Shown here one piece after another: positions 2,028 through 64,000 of a stretch of DNA of 64,000 nucleotides. The DNA comes from an uncultured Ectothiorhodospiraceae bacterium. GTDB taxonomy: Bacteria; Pseudomonadota; Gammaproteobacteria; GCA-002705445; GCA-002716945. Both the position numbers and the translations under genes were made by a program. The DNA lies in contig CAYFEQ010000003.1 in NCBI GenBank assembly GCA_964342155.1, forward strand, positions 27,734 through 91,733, written 5' to 3'. A model generated the notes under the pieces. That model searched no databases and was not told the DNA's origin. It was given only the letters and a program-made list of their open reading frames with translations. The number at the start of each line of letters is the position of its first letter. Position 1 is the first letter of the stretch.

Positions 2028-4616
2028 TTAACTAATCATACTATTAAGTACATAATTCAATATACCTTCATTTTTATAATATTTCCACTCCATGGGAGAA
2101 TCAATTCTTATTTTGACCATAAATGACGCTGGCTTTTTATTAATCAAAGTTTCAATTGTAACTGTGTCAGAATTTTCATTAATTTTGTCTATTGTGAATG
2201 TTGACGTAGCGTCAAGTTTCAATGAATCAAAGTTTTCATTCTCAAGGAATTGAAGAGGCAAAATACCCATTCCAACAAGATTAGAACGATGAATGCGTTC
2301 AAAACTCTCAGCAATAACTGCCTTAACTCCTAAAAGCTTTGTACCTTTTGCCGCCCAATCACGAGAAGATCCACAACCATAATCTTTTCCAGCAAATATT
2401 ATTAAATTACTTTTATTCTTTTTATACTCTTGTGCTGCATCATATATTGTCATTATTTTATTATTCGGTATATATGAAGTATATCCACCAGTTTTTTCTG
2501 GAACTAATTTATTTGATAAACGAACATTAGCAAAAGTTCCACGTTCCATAATCTGATAATTACCTCTTCTTGATCCATAGGAATTAAAATCAATTTCATT
2601 AAACCCTTTATCAACTAAAAAACTACCAGCAGGAGAATTTTTCTTGAAGGATCCTGCTGGAGATATATGGTCAGTAGTGACACTGTCACCTAAAATTACA
2701 AGTGGGTAAGCATTATCTATTATATTGAATTTTTTTTCATTATTATAAACAGTCTCAAAAAATGGAGATGGTTGTATGTAAGTTGATTTTTCTTCCCAAT
2801 TAAAATAATCAGATTCATCAATTTTAATAGCTTTCCAATTTTCATCACCTTCAAATACTCTTTTATAAGAATTCGCAAACATGTCGCTTGTAATTGTCTC
2901 TTTTATAATAGATGTGATTTGATCTGAATCTGGCCAAATATCATCCAAATAAACATTTTTTCCGTTTTTATCTTTTCCTAGTGGTTCAGAAGTAATATCA
3001 ACATTTATTCTTCCCAACAATGAATATGCTATTACCAATATAGGCGATGCTAAGAAATTCATTTTTATTTCAGGATGTATACGGCCTTCAAAATTTCTAT
3101 TTCCAGACAATATTGAGCTAGCAATTAGATTATGTTTTTCAATTGCTTCCGTATATTCTTTTTTTAAAGGACCAGAATTTCCAATACATGTTGTGCATCC
3201 ATAGCCAACAACATTAAAACCTAATAAATCAAAGTATTTAAGCAGTCCTGATTTTTTTAAATAATTAGTAACAACTTTAGATCCAGGAGCTAATGATGTT
3301 TTAACCCAACTTGGCACTTTCAAACCTCTTTCAACTGCTTTCTTAGCAAGAAGTCCTGCTCCTATTATTACATTTGGATTTGATGTATTAGTACAACTTG
3401 TAATTGCGGCAATTAAAATTGCACCATTATCAATTAATGATTTTTCTTGTGTTTTCCCATTTGTTTGTTGTTTAATTTCATTGTTGACCAGTTCTTTTAC
3501 ATCAGTTAAATTTACTCTATCTTGTGGTCTTTTTGGTCCAGAAATACATGCATTAATCTTAGAGATATCTAAATCGATAACGTCTGAATAAATTATTTTA
3601 TTTTCATTATTCATAAATAAACCAACTCTTTTAGAATATTTCTCAACTAACTCAATATGTTCTTTGCTTTTTCCTGTAATTTTTAGATAATCAAGTGTCA
3701 AACTATCAATTGGAAAATAACCGCACGTTGCACCATATTCAGGTGCCATATTTGCAATGGTACATCTATCTGCTATTGATAAATTTTGTAATCCATCACC
3801 AAAGAATTCTACAAATTTACCAACGACATTTTTCTTCCTTAATATTTCAACAATTGTTAATACTAAATCAGTTGCAGTAATAGCCTTTTTGAGTTTGCCA
3901 GTTATTCTGAAACCTATTACTTCTGGTAAAAGCATTGGGATTGGTTGCCCCAGCATTGCAGCTTCAGCTTCTATACCTCCAACCCCCCAACCTAGAACAC
4001 CAAGACCGTTTACCATAGTTGTGTGGGAATCCGTCCCGACAACAGTATCTGGAAATAAAGAATTATTATTATTGAAAATAACTTGAGATATGTGCTCTAT
4101 ATTAATTTGATGAATTATTCCATTATTTGGCGGAACAATTCTTAAATTTTTAAAAGAGCTTTGCCCCCACTTCAATAATCTATATCTTTCTAAATTTCTT
4201 TTATATTCTAATTGAGTATTTAAATCTTTAGCTTTGTCGGTGCCAAAATGATCAACCATAACTGAATGATCAATCACCAAATCCGTTTGGCATTGAGGGT
4301 TTATAGATGATGGATCACCACCAAGTTTTTTTATAGCATCACGCATTGAAGCAAGATCTACTATAGCTGGGACACCAGTAAAATCTTGCATTATTACTCT
4401 ACTTGGTAAAAAGCTTAATTCTGTTTGATTCTTTATATTACCATTCCAATTAATAAAGTTTTCTACTGTACTATTTAAAGAAGATCCAACATTATTTCTA
4501 AGTAGATTTTCTAATAGGACTTTGAGGGAATATGGAAGATGACTAATCTTTAATTTATCAATATCGTGGATAGAAAAACTTTTATTTTGATGAACTAATT
4601 TATCAATACAATCCAT
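2028..4616 (-). CDS. acnA: Aconitate hydratase A
   Basis: RVIMQDFTGVP, VGTDSHT, AAITSCTNTSNP, GYGCTTCIGNSG, TTDHISPAG, YGCGSSRDWAAKG. Confidence 0.97.
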   Translation of the reverse strand: MDCIDKLVHQNKSFSIHDIDKLKISHLPYSLKVLLENLLRNNVGSSLNSTVENFINWNGNIKNQTELSFLPSRVIMQDFTGVPAIVDLASMRDAIKKLGGDPSSINPQCQTDLVIDHSVMVDHFGTDKAKDLNTQLEYKRNLERYRLLKWGQSSFKNLRIVPPNNGIIHQINIEHISQVIFNNNNSLFPDTVVGTDSHTTMVNGLGVLGWGVGGIEAEAAMLGQPIPMLLPEVIGFRITGKLKKAITATDLVLTIVEILRKKNVVGKFVEFFGDGLQNLSIADRCTIANMAPEYGATCGYFPIDSLTLDYLKITGKSKEHIELVEKYSKRVGLFMNNENKIIYSDVIDLDISKINACISGPKRPQDRVNLTDVKELVNNEIKQQTNGKTQEKSLIDNGAILIAAITSCTNTSNPNVIIGAGLLAKKAVERGLKVPSWVKTSLAPGSKVVTNYLKKSGLLKYFDLLGFNVVGYGCTTCIGNSGPLKKEYTEAIEKHNLIASSILSGNRNFEGRIHPEIKMNFLASPILVIAYSLLGRINVDITSEPLGKDKNGKNVYLDDIWPDSDQITSIIKETITSDMFANSYKRVFEGDENWKAIKIDESDYFNWEEKSTYIQPSPFFETVYNNEKKFNIIDNAYPLVILGDSVTTDHISPAGSFKKNSPAGSFLVDKGFNEIDFNSYGSRRGNYQIMERGTFANVRLSNKLVPEKTGGYTSYIPNNKIMTIYDAAQEYKKNKSNLIIFAGKDYGCGSSRDWAAKGTKLLGVKAVIAESFERIHRSNLVGMGILPLQFLENENFDSLKLDATSTFTIDKINENSDTVTIETLINKKPASFMVKIRIDSPMEWKYYKNEGILNYVLNSMIS

Positions 4617-19504: not shown

Positions 19505-19578
19505 TAGGCACGATTGGGTTCGAACCAACGACCTCCACCATGTCAAGGTGGCGCTCTAACCAGCTGAGCTACGCGCCT
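19505..19578 (-). tRNA. tRNA-Val(GAC), CCA not encoded
   Basis: AGGCGCG acceptor stem, CCACC-TTGACAT-GGTGG anticodon arm, GGTTCGAAC T-arm; discriminator A followed by AGAA. Confidence 0.96.
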
Positions 19579-22931: not shown

Positions 22932-23004
22932 CTCCCCGGGACGGACTCGAACCGCCGACCTGGTGATTAACAGTCACTCGCTCTACCAACTGAGCTACCG
23001 GGGA
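22932..23004 (-). tRNA. tRNA-Asn(GTT), CCA not encoded
   Basis: TCCCCGG acceptor stem, CTGTTAA anticodon loop, GGTTCGAGT T-arm; discriminator G followed by TATC. Confidence 0.95.
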
Positions 23005-53330: not shown

Positions 53331-55061
53331 TTAGATTATATCATCAATATTTTTACCTGCAATCAAGGACTTAATGCTGGCATTCATTCTTCGTTCTACA
53401 TAAAATTCAGATGATTCTTCTAATTTTTTAATTGCTGATAAGATTTCATCTGAATTATCTTTTTTTATTAATTTTTTTAATTCTTCTAATGGTGTATTGA
53501 TTAAGGAAAATTCATTATCATCTAATAATTCTTTTCCATCTTTTTTCAAAGCTTCGGTTATTGCATAAATTACTCTTTCAGCTTCAACCCTACTTTCATT
53601 AAGTTTTCTTAACTTCATATCAATTTCAGCAGAATTATTTGAATCTTCTATCATTTTCATAAGCTCATCTTCAGTCATTCCATAAGAAGGATTAACTTCT
53701 ATATCTGTTCTATTTCCTGAACTTTCTTCCTCTGCAGATACCGATAAAAGACCATCAACATCAATTTGAAATTCAACCTTAATTCGTGCACCCCCTGCTA
53801 CCATTGGTGATATATCATGCAATGTAAATCTTGATAATGATTTACAATCGTCAACTAATTCTCTTTCGCCTTGTATGACATGTATTAGTAATTTAGTTTG
53901 CCCATCTTTGAATGTAGTAAAATTTTTTGAAGCAGAAACAGGTATTGGTGTATTCCTAGGTATAATTTTTTCAGATAAACCTCCATAGGTTTCTATTCCA
54001 AGGGATAATGGCAATACATCAAGTAAAAGGATTTCTTCTTTGTTAGTCCCAGATAGAACCCCAGCTTGTATAGCTGCTCCCTCTGCTACAACTCTGTCTG
54101 GATCAATATCGTCAAGAATTTCACATTCAAATTCATTTTGTAATAAATTTTTTATTAACGGTATTCTTGTTGAGCCACCAACGAGAATAATATTTTTGAT
54201 TTTATTAGTTTCTAGCCCCGAACTCTTTATAGCTTGTTTAGTCATCATCAAGGTTCTAGCGACAAGATCTTTTATTAGTTTATTAAAATCAGCAACTGAT
54301 AACCTTTCTGAATCTTGATTGGTAGTACATATATTTTCTTTAATAAGTTTAGCCTCTTCTAATTCACATCCAATACTCTCTTTTATTAAATTATCAATAT
54401 CATCCCCTCCAAGTGATGTATCTCCATCAGTAGATAGAACCTTAAATACTCCTTTTTGAAGATTTAATACTGAAACATCAAAAGTTCCTCCACCTAAATC
54501 ATAAATAACAAAATTACCTTTTTCCTTAGTGTTGAGTCCATAGGCAATAGCTGCAGCAGTCGGCTCATTTAATAGACGAAGTACTTTTAATCCAGCTATT
54601 TCAGCTGCTTTTTTTGTTGCCTGTCTTTGAATATCATTAAAATAGGCTGGTACAGTGATAACAGCTCCATCTATTGGCTTTTTCTCATTTTTTTCTACAA
54701 TTTCTTTAAGAGCTTTTAATATAAGTGATGAAATCTCAATTGCACTAAATTTTTTACCTGAATCAGATGTTATCATTGGTAGTTTCTCATTAGATAAATC
54801 AAATTCATGTGGAAGTTTGTTAACAAGATTTTTAACTTCTGAGCTAGTTAAGCCAATTAATCTCTTTATAGATTTAATTAACAAAGGCTTTTGAGATTGA
54901 TCATTTATATTAACTACAGAAGGATGCAGTGAACCATAAAATTTTGTTTGTTTACCTCTAGATGCTATCAATGAATTTGTAGTTCCTAAGTCAATACCTA
55001 CTATAAATTTATTTAATTCATTATTAGTAGACTCGGGGTCAGATATTTGAATTAAACTCAT
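53331..55061 (-). CDS. hscA: Fe-S assembly chaperone HscA (short, 576 aa)
   Basis: GIDLGTTNS, TVPAYFND.QRQAT, YDLGGGTFD, VGGSTR, MVAGGARI; isc operon context. Confidence 0.93.
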   Translation of the reverse strand: MSLIQISDPESTNNELNKFIVGIDLGTTNSLIASRGKQTKFYGSLHPSVVNINDQSQKPLLIKSIKRLIGLTSSEVKNLVNKLPHEFDLSNEKLPMITSDSGKKFSAIEISSLILKALKEIVEKNEKKPIDGAVITVPAYFNDIQRQATKKAAEIAGLKVLRLLNEPTAAAIAYGLNTKEKGNFVIYDLGGGTFDVSVLNLQKGVFKVLSTDGDTSLGGDDIDNLIKESIGCELEEAKLIKENICTTNQDSERLSVADFNKLIKDLVARTLMMTKQAIKSSGLETNKIKNIILVGGSTRIPLIKNLLQNEFECEILDDIDPDRVVAEGAAIQAGVLSGTNKEEILLLDVLPLSLGIETYGGLSEKIIPRNTPIPVSASKNFTTFKDGQTKLLIHVIQGERELVDDCKSLSRFTLHDISPMVAGGARIKVEFQIDVDGLLSVSAEEESSGNRTDIEVNPSYGMTEDELMKMIEDSNNSAEIDMKLRKLNESRVEAERVIYAITEALKKDGKELLDDNEFSLINTPLEELKKLIKKDNSDEILSAIKKLEESSEFYVERRMNASIKSLIAGKNIDDII

Positions 55062-55573
55062 GAGGTCAATTTATCGTTAAGTTCATTTGCATGTTTAATA
55101 TAAAATCTTAGTTTGCAAAAAATATTCCACATTTCTTCAAAATCCTTTTTCAAATAACAGTTTTTTATATCATTGATAGATAAAGATATTTTCTTAATTA
55201 TATTATTTTGATAAGAGCTTACTTGGTTAGAATCATTCTCTTTAATATTGTCAATGAATTCATTGAACTCAATTTGCTCTAATAAAAAATTATCATCCTT
55301 AAGTGTTTCAGATTCATCTCTTTTGAAATTATTAATTTTAAATATATAATCAATTCTTTTAATTAAGTCACCTAAAGTTACATATCCATCATTGATATAA
55401 GATGATATTTGAAGAGCTAATCTCTTTTCATGGCTAGATGAATTGGAATATTTATCAGGATGAAATTGTTGTTGTAAATTATTATATTTATTATCCAACG
55501 CAGGCTTATTTACTTCTATACTAACTTCGATACCAAATAAATCAAAATAATTCTTCTTTAAAATGTCCATCAA
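55058..55573 (-). CDS. hscB: Fe-S assembly co-chaperone HscB
   Basis: NYFDLF, FHPDK J-domain, FLLEQIE; context. Confidence 0.92.
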
Positions 55574-55893
55574 ACATTAAAACTTTCACCGCATCCACAT
55601 TCATCTTTGACATTTGGGTTTTTGAATCTAAATCCCTCATTAATACCTTCTTTTGAAAAGTCTAATTCTGTTCCTTTAAGATAAACATAGCTTTTTGGGT
55701 TGATGATTATTTTTATGCCGTTATCATCAAAAACTAAATCATCCTGCTCAATTTTATCAGCAAATTCAATTACATACGCGAGCCCTGAACATCCAGTAGT
55801 TTTTACACCTAATCTAAGACCTATTCCTTTACCACGGCTTGAAAGATGTCTTTGCGCATGTTCTGCTGCTGATTTAGTAACTGATATTGACAT
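55570..55893 (-). CDS. iscA: A-type Fe-S carrier IscA (likely start MSISV at 55893)
   Basis: [24 protein letters not shown]. Confidence 0.96.
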
Positions 55894-55895
55894 TT

Positions 55896-57149
55896 TTAAT
55901 GACTCGACCATTTAACTTTCTTTAAATCAATGCCATCTTTATGCATTTCCCATAATGGCGATAAATCTCTTAACCTGCTTACGTTGTCTTTAATAATTTT
56001 TAGGACATGCTCAATATCTATTTCTGTTGTATATTTCCCTATTGTCATTCTTATCGAACTATGAGCTAACTCATCATCTCTTCCTAGAGCTCTTAAAACA
56101 TAACTTGGTTCAAGGCTTGCAGATGTGCAAGCTGATCCAGAAGAAACAGCAACGTCCTTCATTGCCATTATCAAACTTTCTCCTTCTATGAAATTAAAAC
56201 TCACATTTAGATTACCCGGTATCCTTTGATCTAAATCACCATTAAGGTAAATCTCTTCCATATCTTTTAGTCCATTCCAAAGTTTATCTCTTAGTTTTAG
56301 AATTCTTTTATTGTCTTCTAACATTTCTTCTTCAGCAATTCTAAAAGCCTCTCCCATTCCTACAATCTGATGCGTTGGAAGAGTTCCAGATCTAAAACCT
56401 CTCTCATGACCACCGCCATGCATTTGAGCTTCTAATCTTACTCTTGGCTTTCTACGTACATAAAGCGCACCTATTCCCTTTGGCCCATAAACCTTATGTG
56501 CAGAAAGAGATAATAAATCAATATTATATTTATCAACATCTACTTTTACTTTGCCTGGACTTTGAGCAGCATCCACATGCAATATAATATTTTTTTCTCT
56601 AGTGATTTTTCCTATACTTTCCAAATCTTGAATAACTCCAATCTCATTATTTACATGCATTATAGAAATTAATATAGTTGAAGGAGTAATTGCTTCTACT
56701 AGTTTTTTCTGGTTTAAAAGTCCATTAGGTTCTGGATCAAGATAAGTTACTTCAAATCCTTCATTTTCAAGCGACCTCATTGTATCAAGAACAGCTTTAT
56801 GTTCAGTAGACAGTGTTATAAGGTGATTCCCTCTATCTTTATAAAAGTGTGCTGCACCTTTTATTGCTAAATTATCTGATTCAGTAGCTCCACTAGTCCA
56901 AATTATTTCCCTATGATCTGCATTGATTAAAGAAGCAACATTTTTTCTAGCTTCTTCGACAAGTTTTTCGCTTTCCCACCCAAATGTATGTGAACGAGAC
57001 GCTGGGTTGCCAAACGCTCCTTCGATAGTCAGACACTCAGACATCATCTTCGCAACTCTAGGGTCTACAGGAGTAGTTGCTGAATAATCAAGATAGATTG
57101 GTATATTTAAAATATTCTTTTTATCATGTAAGTTTGTTGCCATATCCAT
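55896..57149 (-). CDS. iscS: Cysteine desulfurase IscS (exact start uncertain)
   Basis: [39 protein letters not shown]. Confidence 0.97.
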
Positions 57150-57582
57150 GCTCCCTTCTTTTATCTACAATATTTTGGATATCATATCTTACAATTACAT
57201 CGCTGAGTGAGACTCCCTTCATGTAATCATGTATTTGTTTTGTTAAGTCGGTCCAAACATAATGAGTCAGGCAGGGTTTATCATTACTACAATTCATTGC
57301 GCCACCACATTGGGTTTGATCCATATTCTCATCAACAGCAGTTATAATTTCGAATAGAGTAATTTCTGATGCCTCTCTATCTAGTTTGTAGCCACCTCCT
57401 GGACCTCTAACACTTTTTACTAAAGATTTGGTCTTCAATTTAGAGAATAATTGTTCCAAATATGATAATGAAATATCTTGTCTTTTTGATATTTCACTTA
57501 GTGATATAGGGGTTTTTTTCTGGAAAAGTGCAATGTCAATCATAGCCACTATTGCATATCTTCCTTTAGTTGTAAGCTTCAT
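57124..57582 (-). CDS. iscR: Fe-S cluster assembly regulator IscR
   Basis: [25 protein letters not shown]; C-x5-C-x5-C-x2-H ligands ([17 protein letters not shown]). Confidence 0.96.
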
Positions 57583-57630: not shown

Positions 57631-58340
57631 TATTTTACCTTTCTATTAATTGAAGCAATGATTCCAAGAAGAATATTAATTTCATCTTTATCTAGCGATG
57701 CCTTATTGAAAATTATATGAATTTTTTGAGTTAATGATTTAATATTTTTTTTTGTCATAAATTTAGTATTCATTAGCAAAGCAATGAGTTCTTTATAAAA
57801 AAAATTTTTTTGTTTTGTAGGAGCAAGTTTTACTTTACTCAAAAGTGGCTTTGTGTGTTTAAAAGAATATTTGAACAATTCATAAGAGAATATTTGAACA
57901 GCAGCAGCTAAATTTAATGATTGATAATCTTTGTATGTCGGTAACTTTACTAGATAATTACACATTAACAAGTCTTTATTCGATAAGCCAGATTGTTCAT
58001 TACCAAATAGTATAGATATCTTTTTTTTTGGATGCGCATAAAGAAGCTTTATGCATTGATCAATAGTAAGTTTTGGTACATTTGCTTTTCTTTCACGAGA
58101 GCTAAAGCCAATGTTGATTTCTGATTTTTCTAAAGCATCTGTCAGATTGTCGAATATTTTTGCTCTTTTAATTACATCTTTACATCCAACAGCTAAAGCA
58201 TATGAGTCATTCGTTGGCAACTTCTTTGGTTTTACTAAAGAGAGACTCTTCAATCCCATAACCTTCATCGCTCTTGCTGTAGCGCCAATATTTCCGGGAT
58301 GAGAAGTTTCTAGTAATAATATCTCTATATTCTTCAACAT
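57630..58340 (-). CDS. trmJ: tRNA (C32/U32-2'-O)-methyltransferase, TrmJ family
   Basis: HPGNIGATARAMK.MG, FGNEQSGL, SLNLAAAV; upstream of iscR. Confidence 0.9.
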   Translation of the reverse strand: MLKNIEILLLETSHPGNIGATARAMKVMGLKSLSLVKPKKLPTNDSYALAVGCKDVIKRAKIFDNLTDALEKSEINIGFSSRERKANVPKLTIDQCIKLLYAHPKKKISILFGNEQSGLSNKDLLMCNYLVKLPTYKDYQSLNLAAAVQIFSYELFKYSFKHTKPLLSKVKLAPTKQKNFFYKELIALLMNTKFMTKKNIKSLTQKIHIIFNKASLDKDEINILLGIIASINRKVK

Positions 58341-58365
58341 TAATTATCTAATAATTAAAAATAGT

Positions 58366-59259
58366 TTATTGTTGTTCAGTACCTATGCCTAAAAAATATA
58401 AGCTTGTGCTAGCAATAAATATTGATGAATATGTTCCAACAAGAACACCAACAATCATTGCAGTAGCAAAAAATTTCACTGCTATTCCACCGGCCAACAA
58501 TAGTGAAAACAAGACAAATAGAGTTGTTAGGGAAGTAATGATTGTACGAGATAAGGTTTGGTTAACAGAGATATTTAATATATCTATAAATTCATTTTTC
58601 CTAATCAATCTCATATTTTCGCGAATCCTATCATACACAACTATGGTGTCATTGAGTGAATAACCAATCACAGCTAAAATTGCTGATAAGACACTTAAAT
58701 CAAATTGCAGCTGAGTGATAGAAAAAAAACCTAGTGTCAAAATTACATCATGCAGCAGAGCAAAAATTGCCCCTATCCCATAGAGAAATTCAAATCTAAA
58801 TCCAATATATATAAGGATACTTAATAAGGCTACCAACATGGCCCATTCACCCTTTTCTCTTAATTCTGATCCAACTTGTGCTCCTACATATTCTAGGCGT
58901 AAAATTTTAAACTGATTATCTGTAGTAAGAGAGTTGATAAGGAAATCATTGATTGAAACTTGATCAATTTTCGGACTGTCCTTGAGTTTAATAATAACTT
59001 CTTTATTTGTCCCATAGTACTGGACCACAGAATCATTAATTCCATTATTTTTTAAATTAGCTTTTAATTCTGAGATATTTACATCCTTTTGATATTGAAG
59101 TTGGGCAATATATCCATTGGAAAAATCAATTCCCCAATTTAAACCATTTAAAGCAAAACTTATTATGCTGAGAATAATCAACAAACTAGAAAAAAATATA
59201 GCTCCTTTTCTATAACCTAGAAAATTAAATTTGCTGTCTTTTTTGATAATTGAAAACAT
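58366..59259 (-). CDS. secF: Protein translocase subunit SecF
   Basis: GIDF, VGAQVGSEL, HDV, GYSLNDTIVVYDRIREN. Confidence 0.96.
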   Translation of the reverse strand: MFSIIKKDSKFNFLGYRKGAIFFSSLLIILSIISFALNGLNWGIDFSNGYIAQLQYQKDVNISELKANLKNNGINDSVVQYYGTNKEVIIKLKDSPKIDQVSINDFLINSLTTDNQFKILRLEYVGAQVGSELREKGEWAMLVALLSILIYIGFRFEFLYGIGAIFALLHDVILTLGFFSITQLQFDLSVLSAILAVIGYSLNDTIVVYDRIRENMRLIRKNEFIDILNISVNQTLSRTIITSLTTLFVLFSLLLAGGIAVKFFATAMIVGVLVGTYSSIFIASTSLYFLGIGTEQQ

Positions 59260-61065: not shown

Positions 61066-63531
<2,466 letters not shown>

Positions 63532-63586
63532 TAATTAAAAATTATAAAATACAAAGTTTGCAATTCAAAAAGAAATTTGATATTAA

Positions 63587-63656
63587 TAATGCAGGTATAT
63601 CTCATATATAAATAGTAAACCAATCTAATTTAACAAAGTAATGCAGGAGGATATCT
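63587..63656 (+). repeat. Imperfect direct repeat TAATGCAGG(T/AGG)ATATCT, 52-nt period
   Basis: Copies at 63587-63602 and 63639-63656; the second copy contains the SD AGGAGG. Confidence 0.5.
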
Positions 63657-63657
63657 A

Positions 63658-64000
63658 ATGAGTTTGATACAAAATTTTCCCTATGACGGTATCGTCACTA
63701 TCAATCGGGTTATTTTAAAAAAGGAATATACTATTGATGATTTACAGGAAAGGGTTGCTCTAATGTGTGAAAATGTTAAAACTTATCATTCCGAGACAGG
63801 TTTCATTGGAGGAATGGTTGTCTTAAATAGTGGGCAAATATCAAACGAAGGAAGCAGTTTAGGGAAAGCTTTGGACAGCAAATACAAAAATAAAGAAGCG
63901 CTGATAATTACCTTCTGGAAATCCTATGAGGATCATGAAAATTCACACAAAAGTAAAACATTTCAGCCACTCTTCAAAAAGGTAATAGATGTTTGTGAGA
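63658..64000 (+). CDS. Sulfur oxygenase reductase-like dimeric alpha/beta-barrel protein, partial (runs off right edge; not in ORF track)
   Basis: AGGAGG SD, 7 nt, ATG; 114 open codons: MSLIQNFPYDGIVTINRVILKKEYTIDDLQERVALMCENVKTYHSETGFIGG...IITFWKSYEDHENSHKSKTFQPLFKKVIDVCE. The ORF is secure; the family call is by eye. Confidence 0.75.
   Translation, partial: MSLIQNFPYDGIVTINRVILKKEYTIDDLQERVALMCENVKTYHSETGFIGGMVVLNSGQISNEGSSLGKALDSKYKNKEALIITFWKSYEDHENSHKSKTFQPLFKKVIDVCE

Follow-up and report, generated by a model that had tools for sequence, protein, structure and literature searches.

This study examined a 64,000-nucleotide stretch of DNA from an uncultured Ectothiorhodospiraceae bacterium (hereafter, the window) and identified at its end a gene whose product may best be explained as a homologue of sulfur oxygenase reductase (SOR) that comprises the catalytic half alone, probably a dimeric non-heme-iron/cysteine enzyme that would act on sulfane sulfur. 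We assign this explanation a probability of approximately 0.45. The gene itself is real, and its product is approximately 147 aa long and has a single ABM-type fold. To date, SOR is known solely in the form of a cage enzyme with 24 subunits of approximately 300 residues each, mostly from thermoacidophiles and dedicated sulfur oxidizers.

The gene at the window edge and its family

The Shine-Dalgarno sequence, the ATG start codon, Cys37, the GFIG motif, His93/His97, and Cys113, from which the initial annotation had proposed an SOR-like protein, were all located in the sequence where it had placed them (Table 1). The segment TFWKSYEDHENSH of the target protein contains H93 and H97. The window edge cuts the open reading frame, and the length of the protein was established from homologues. 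The fragment matched 4158 database clusters at E <= 0.001; the best were 83-94% identical over all 114 residues, almost all with a length of 146-148 aa. Taken together, full-length homologues of 146-148 aa were 83-99% identical, and those at 94-99% set the full length of the target protein at 147 aa. The close homologues all continued past the fragment as ...VIDVC-ENGNEEIVYDMLWQGEAYTPEMAKLAQDAKEKNQ-stop. The closest genome locus (L007), which is colinear with the window end and shares 82.8% nucleotide identity with it over 3.8 kb, supplied the missing 33 codons, followed by a TAA stop codon. A third iron ligand, a Glu, had been predicted to lie past the window edge; the homologues and L007 placed it at E119, five codons beyond the last complete codon. 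A comparison of the 114 codons between the window and L007 revealed 37 synonymous and 6 nonsynonymous differences, indicating that the target is a protein-coding gene under purifying selection. Its promoter presumably lies in the intergenic region shared with queA. A scan of positions 63300-64000 for consensus promoters and terminators identified no plus-strand site, and the three sites found in total compare with 4.2 expected from shuffled sequences.

Table 1. Coordinates of the target gene, its sequence elements, and its divergent neighbor in the window
Feature	Position	Strand	Basis
Divergent neighbor queA	62497-63531	minus	ORF list
Intergenic region common to the target gene and divergent queA	63532-63657		ORF list; near-colinear with L007 3250-3448
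Shine-Dalgarno sequence AGGAGG, 7-nt spacer to ATG	63645-63650	+	Read from sequence
Target gene, first 114 codons and one base of approximately 147 codons	63658-64000	+	Translation; window edge cuts ORF
Start codon ATG of target gene	63658-63660	+	Read from sequence
Cys37 codon, pairs with essential SOR Cys31	63766-63768	+	Alignment A3, census, hhalign (MC with VC)
G48-F49-I50-G51, start of beta-2, pairs with SOR G39-F40-V41-G42	63799-63810	+	Alignments, hhalign, model
T85-F-W-K-S-Y-E-D-H93-E-N-S-H97, end of beta-3 and helix alpha-2, putative iron ligands	63910-63948	+	Alignment, model
His93 codon, putative iron ligand	63934-63936	+	Translation
His97 codon, putative iron ligand	63946-63948	+	Translation
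Cys113 codon, pairs with SOR Cys101	63994-63996	+	Alignment A3, census, hhalign
E114 codon, last complete codon in the window	63997-63999	+	Translation

A scan of one genome per species identified relatives of the target in at least 550 genomes. The hosts include marine low-GC Gammaproteobacteria (the lineage of the window), Sedimenticola, Thiobacillus, and Thiotrichaceae, as well as Nitrospira/Nitrospirales, Nitrospinota, SAR324, Gallionella/Gallionellaceae, Rhodocyclaceae, and Burkholderiales. Scans of the family members revealed none above a Pfam or NCBIfam threshold, and the family is unnamed. The initial description of the protein as unannotated does not hold everywhere; homologues carry source names, namely "hypothetical", "ligand-binding protein SH3", "ABM domain-containing protein", and "HmoA". 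No scan revealed an SH3-type or ligand-binding domain, and the name "ligand-binding protein SH3" (P0011, P0046, P0087, and P0097; NCBI, nr) has therefore probably spread as a misannotation.

When 1.84 billion representative proteins were searched without filters, P0005, a member of the marine type, returned just 158 relatives. No true SOR was found by this direct sequence search, and the link between the family and SOR therefore needs profiles. A second search, which started from P0180, a distant member, brought up a large subfamily with lengths of 128-141 aa from Rhodocyclaceae, Gallionellaceae, and Sulfuricella denitrificans (SCD_n01370), labeled "hypothetical", "ABM domain-containing", or "HmoA" in databases. 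The two subfamilies share only 30-37% identity, yet 28 columns of their alignment (A3) are invariant, including C37, G48, F49, T85, W87, H93, E94, S96, H97, C113, E119, Y122, W126, and G128; E119 stands three residues before the Tyr. In a census of 286 near-full-length members, C37, H93, H97, and C113 were each present in 267-275 members (C37 in 272, C113 in 267), and a Glu three residues ahead of the Tyr was present in approximately 265.

A divergent subgroup, P0190 and P0268, has lost His93, His97, and Glu119 together; Cys37 is kept in P0190 and gone in P0268. These two proteins look like degenerate or neofunctionalized paralogues. Two further candidates, P0235 (3836 aa) and P0270 (1517 aa), were rejected as spurious relatives; both are repetitive coiled-coil proteins.

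Profile comparison with SOR

For comparison, 130 true SORs were gathered, 47 of which were aligned, and the Acidianus ambivalens SOR sequence was checked against PDB 2cb2 and 6qjc. The residues C31, G39, F40, T78, W80, H86, H90, C104, and E114 were invariant in the 47 SORs, and C101 and Y117 were conserved in at least 90% of them. In SOR, the substitutions H86A, H90A, E114A, and C31A abolish activity, and C101A and C104A reduce it approximately 10-fold (PMC7398979).

The relationship to the N-terminal catalytic domain of SOR that the initial annotation had proposed is now supported by profile alignment, with hhalign probabilities of 69-86% at E values of 4e-5 to 6e-6. The comparison of the family with the 47-SOR alignment yielded the lower probability (69%, E 4.3e-5, 113 columns) and paired C37 with SOR C31, G48 and F49 with G39 and F40, T85-F-W87 with T78-F-W80, H93 with H86, H97 with H90, C113 with C101, E119 with E114, and Y122 with Y117 (SOR E114-x-x-Y117). 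A larger family alignment yielded 86% (E 5.6e-6) against the N-terminal half of SOR and 9.8% (E 3e-3) against the C-terminal half; reversed controls yielded 0.1-0.2% (E 0.3-0.65). When single members were aligned with the N-terminal half, most reached 40-96%, and the members without the His or Glu ligands remained below 3%.

Scores from hidden Markov models followed the same pattern. The model of the SOR N-terminal half scored the 286 members at a median of 11.3 bits and a maximum of 31.4 bits, with 124 members at 15 bits or higher, and reversed decoys at 0.7 bits at most; the model of the C-terminal half yielded a family median of 0.4 bits. Judged by these profiles, the SOR resemblance of the family exceeds chance. 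A bridge between the two groups was provided by P0166, a metagenomic member of 126 aa that matched P0005 at E 1e-15 and SOR with an hhalign probability of 94-96% (E 9.3e-8 to approximately 1e-8). In this protein, EGPYEPFYEV stands in the place of the SOR consensus EGPWEPxYEI, and the Cys-to-GF spacing is SOR-like, with no indel there; the protein has no Cys113 equivalent. The bridge rests on one sequence, because a scan of metagenome contigs identified no relatives of P0166.

SOR was the top-scoring family in Pfam and NCBIfam and the only credible PDB family by sequence. Nevertheless, the individual scores linking the family to SOR were modest, and all were below curated thresholds: 17.9-19.4 bits for Pfam SOR PF07682 (cut-off 25) and 20.8-22.8 bits for NCBIfam SulOxRed NF047630 (cut-off 400). 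Coverage was confined to positions 3-118 of the approximately 300 positions of the SOR model. In a PDB search with a close-subfamily profile, Plasmodium triosephosphate isomerase equaled SOR in rank at E 2e-3; this match was treated as a compositional artifact, and it dropped away with a broader profile, with which SOR leads. Because a spurious match reached such a value, an isolated E value of approximately 1e-3 means little. The specific tie to the SOR catalytic domain is drawn instead from the consistency of the scores and from the exact correspondence between the aligned invariant residues and those that SOR requires according to mutagenesis. On this basis, the family is likely to be related specifically to SOR and to share a conserved site with it.

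The proposed relatedness to SOR stood for the N-terminal domain but not as membership in the SOR family. The target protein is not part of the SOR family proper, because it is half as long (147 aa, one domain), lacks the C-terminal domain, scores below the thresholds, and has no counterpart of Cys104, a residue absent from the family though invariant in the 47 SORs. The statement that C37 is followed by GFIG needs a refinement of the spacing; the gap is 10 residues in the target versus 7 in SOR.

Genomic neighborhoods

In the window, the genes past queA are tgt, yajC, secD, secF, and a SpoU-type methylase gene (Pfam labels from syntenic loci), and the G+C content is approximately 30% throughout. 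The other window ORFs scanned were housekeeping genes, including ligA, smc, der, bamB, hisS, the genes for aconitase and fumarase, and several aminoacyl-tRNA synthetase genes. None of the scanned ORFs was a sulfur-oxidation gene, in agreement with the initial annotation. Part of the isc operon (hscA, hscB, iscS, and iscR) lies at 53331-57582 on the minus strand, approximately 6-10 kb upstream of the target gene; the nearness of IscS, a persulfide-forming cysteine desulfurase, to this gene is probably coincidental. A suhB-like inositol monophosphatase gene lies between the SpoU-type methylase gene and secF in the relatives L001-L004 (1970-2749); in the window, suhB is absent, and the two genes are merely 25 bp apart (58340-58366). 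Two tRNA genes on the minus strand (19505-19578 and 22932-23004) were the sole Rfam matches in the window at the gathering score.

The gene appears monocistronic, and queA adjoined it in all 19 loci of the marine lineage of the window. Downstream of the gene, L007 carries tRNA-Leu(CAA) (4027-4112) and then a PfkB-family kinase gene, whereas in other relatives (L001 8445-8654) a convergent ORF of 66-69 aa abuts the stop codon instead; the product of this ORF is probably membrane-spanning. No sulfur-related neighbor was found in the lineage of the window, where the neighbors are queA, tRNA-Leu or the small ORF, and the PfkB kinase gene, and no conserved operon partner was found across 64 diverse loci outside the marine lineage. 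Neighborhood clustering of 83 loci returned MsbA, Fmt, PurM, and KdsB as the widest partners outside the marine lineage (at most 8 loci each), and these were set aside as housekeeping functions.

Two associations with sulfur-related genes were observed in other lineages. A TusE/DsrC-family gene directly adjoins the family gene in five betaproteobacterial loci (L055 3493-3837; L064, L071, L075 with two copies, and L084), approximately 40-150 nt upstream of it. One of these neighbors is canonical, with the C-terminus PKPTGCV; the others (four) end in ...AGLPESMRKGGY, lack both C-terminal cysteines, and are divergently transcribed. In four Thiotrichaceae loci (L070 570-6486, L032, L044, and L074), the family gene is flanked by a PiT/CysP-like permease gene and, on the opposite side, by cysJ and the gene for a CysB-family LysR regulator. 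These loci also carry an uncharacterized ORF of 100 aa; cysJ scored above the TIGR01931 cut-off, and the locus looks like a sulfur-assimilation neighborhood. The TusE/DsrC and cysJ/CysP associations are weakly suggestive of a link to sulfur, and they are phylogenetically narrow and clade-specific.

The TusE/DsrC loci also bear on whether the protein is catalytic at all. It might be a metal- or sulfur-binding protein, for example one with a Cys2His2-type Zn/Fe site (C37, C113, H93, and H97), one that carries persulfide, or one that senses redox state, and it might hand sulfur or a signal on to partner proteins. The invariance of two Cys and two His, the small size of the protein, and the monocistronic arrangement of its gene would fit such a role, as would the five adjoining TusE/DsrC-family genes for proteins of the sulfur-relay type, of which the four Cys-less ones are divergent, as regulator-target pairs often are. 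However, in SOR a distance of 9.5-13 Angstrom separates the homologous cysteines from the iron, which they do not ligate (PMC7398979), and the invariant Glu119 is more in keeping with a 2-His-1-carboxylate site than with a Cys2His2 one. We consider a noncatalytic role improbable.

Predicted fold, proposed function, and known systems

AlphaFold models were obtained for P0005 (marine type; mean pLDDT 80.5, pTM 0.70) and P0306 (Sulfuricella type; mean pLDDT 84.5, pTM 0.75). Both models comprise a single beta-alpha-beta-beta-alpha-beta domain with the fold of the ABM superfamily, and the marine type has an extra C-terminal helix. In the model, H93 and H97 are placed one turn apart on helix 90-97, E119 on strand 118-123 (beta-4), C37 on helix 26-47 (alpha-1), and C113 after helix 103-110, ahead of the last strand; the blocks that hold these five residues have a pLDDT of approximately 90.

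Foldseek searches of the PDB returned 117 and 122 chains at E <= 0.001 for the two models. The top 50 were all single-domain ABM/Dabb proteins (FasU, SnoaB, 4-methylmuconolactone methylisomerase, TT1380, IsdG/I, LsrG, YgiN, and PeHNL), with E values of 1e-6 to 1e-4 and TM-scores of 0.5-0.68 for the best matches; no SOR chain was among the top 50 of either model. The initial annotation had stated beforehand that a best structural match to a metal-free or heme ABM/Dabb barrel would speak against SOR, and the best matches were metal-free or heme-binding ABM proteins. Formally, this result is against SOR, but it is weak evidence, because a single fold is common to all the matched proteins and the model is ligand-free. 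The predicted fold is a generic dimeric alpha+beta barrel, and SOR does not stand out on structure comparison alone. The target protein belongs to the ABM-fold superfamily by predicted structure and falls outside Pfam ABM (PF03992) by score, with 12.1-13 bits against a gathering threshold of 23.1 and a best E value of 0.022 among 60 members.

These matches raise the question of whether the protein turns over an organic substrate as a cofactor-free enzyme of the ABM type, namely a monooxygenase, isomerase, or cyclase. In that case, the conserved His, Cys, and Glu would serve in acid-base catalysis or substrate binding, and the likeness to the SOR site would reflect shared fold ancestry and no shared metal site. 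Besides the Foldseek ranking, this explanation is favored by weak, sub-threshold matches to PF03992 and to the Monooxy_af470-like PF13826 in 20-28 of 60 members and by the UniRef name of the Sulfuricella member ("ABM domain-containing protein"). However, the sequence scores favor SOR (best E 5e-5 versus 0.022 for ABM), and the family profile matched every SOR PDB entry but no ABM chain even at E <= 10. An invariant helical H-x3-H with a Glu on a neighboring strand is, moreover, a typical metal triad, and its residues were lost jointly in P0190 and P0268. We regard a cofactor-free enzyme as unlikely.

A heme-degrading monooxygenase of the IsdG/HmoA type was also considered. JGI names several members "heme-degrading monooxygenase HmoA", IsdG and IsdI are among the Foldseek matches and have the highest sequence identity there (16-24%), and Asn16 pairs with the catalytic Asn7 of IsdG. 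Nevertheless, when the family was aligned by hhalign with IsdG, the sequence of which had been confirmed from PDB 1xbw, the probability was 6%; the catalytic Trp67 of IsdG paired with the invariant Ser96 and its heme-ligand His77 with the invariant Phe106, and C37, H93, C113, and E119 have no role in IsdG. Such an activity is highly improbable.

The preferred explanation remains a homologue of the SOR catalytic half. The target would be a cytoplasmic protein consisting of a single ferredoxin-like (ABM/dimeric alpha+beta barrel) domain of 147 residues, a stand-alone counterpart of the N-terminal half of SOR. By analogy with other single-domain ABM proteins, it is probably a homodimer, and its two copies may pair into the barrel that SOR makes from two fused halves. 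Each copy would hold a mononuclear non-heme iron by means of Glu119, on beta-4, and of His93 and His97, which share a face of alpha-2. Cys37 on alpha-1, helped by Cys113, might deliver sulfur to the pocket as a persulfide or short polysulfide, and iron-bound O2 would there oxidize the sulfane sulfur, with sulfite or thiosulfate as the product. Such chemistry would resemble the oxygenase half-reaction of SOR or that of a persulfide dioxygenase in another fold. By alignment, the iron ligands H86/H90/E114 and the persulfide Cys31 of SOR have the invariant counterparts H93/H97/E119 and C37 in the family. Several features count against an SOR-type function. ABM domains in general have the W-x-S...H portion of the motif, the Cys-to-GF spacing is off by three residues in most members, Cys104 is missing, and the protein probably does not form the 24-mer cage. 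An iron-dependent sulfur oxygenase activity of the target protein is a tentative assignment based on sequence, with somewhat less than an even chance of being correct.

In the literature searched, we found no description of a half-size SOR, of SOR-like proteins, or of SOR in SAR86. If the protein is active, it would provide a minimal model for SOR chemistry and a plausible SOR ancestor, and a function would be assigned to a widespread unnamed family; its activity would also suggest that heterotrophic marine bacteria handle sulfane sulfur by means of an enzyme for which nobody has looked. It is doubtful that the protein is a free-standing, pre-fusion SOR catalytic domain that works as a cage-free non-heme-iron sulfane-sulfur oxygenase at ambient temperature, with hosts that would include heterotrophic Gammaproteobacteria of very high abundance in the sea and many oxidizers of sulfur, iron, and nitrite. 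If this were the case, it would show that SOR originated by duplication and fusion, and the protein would be an unrecognized enzyme of the oxic sulfur cycle that serves in persulfide/polysulfide detoxification or supplies sulfite and sulfide to assimilation. If the protein is metal-free, it is one more ABM-fold protein of unknown substrate.

Compared with SOR (PF07682, NF047630; PDB 2cb2, 3bxv, 6m35, and 6qpa), the family has the same order of elements in the N-terminal domain (Cys, GF, TFW, H-x3-H, Cys, and E-x-x-Y), and the residues essential in SOR (C31, H86, H90, and E114), as well as C101, all have invariant counterparts. The activity of SOR is the O2-dependent oxygenation and disproportionation of S0, and a hollow homo-24-mer cage encloses this chemistry (PMC7398979), whereas the family is known here from sequences and single-chain models; the chemistry proposed for it (Fe, a Cys persulfide, and O2) is modeled on SOR. 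SOR has approximately 308 aa in two fused alpha+beta halves, whereas the target has one domain and no C-terminal domain, and the connection from alpha-1 to beta-2 is three residues longer in most family members. The hosts of SOR are mainly thermoacidophiles and sulfur oxidizers; those of the family are bacteria that are both mesophilic and neutrophilic, heterotrophic marine plankton among them.

The single-domain ABM proteins (PF03992 clan; SnoaB 3kg0, FasU 9lsd, TT1380 1iuj, and YgiN 1r6y) have the same predicted fold and a similar size. They are metal-free and lack the invariant set of Cys, H-x3-H, Cys, and Glu of the family.

The closest functional analogy, in our view, is persulfide dioxygenase (ETHE1/PDO), the fold of which is unrelated. 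This enzyme has a metallo-beta-lactamase fold with a mononuclear non-heme iron on a 2-His-1-carboxylate triad, and in mesophilic bacteria, which are often heterotrophs, it uses O2 to convert sulfane sulfur to sulfite. Its substrate is free glutathione persulfide, whereas that proposed for the family would be an enzyme-bound cysteine persulfide.
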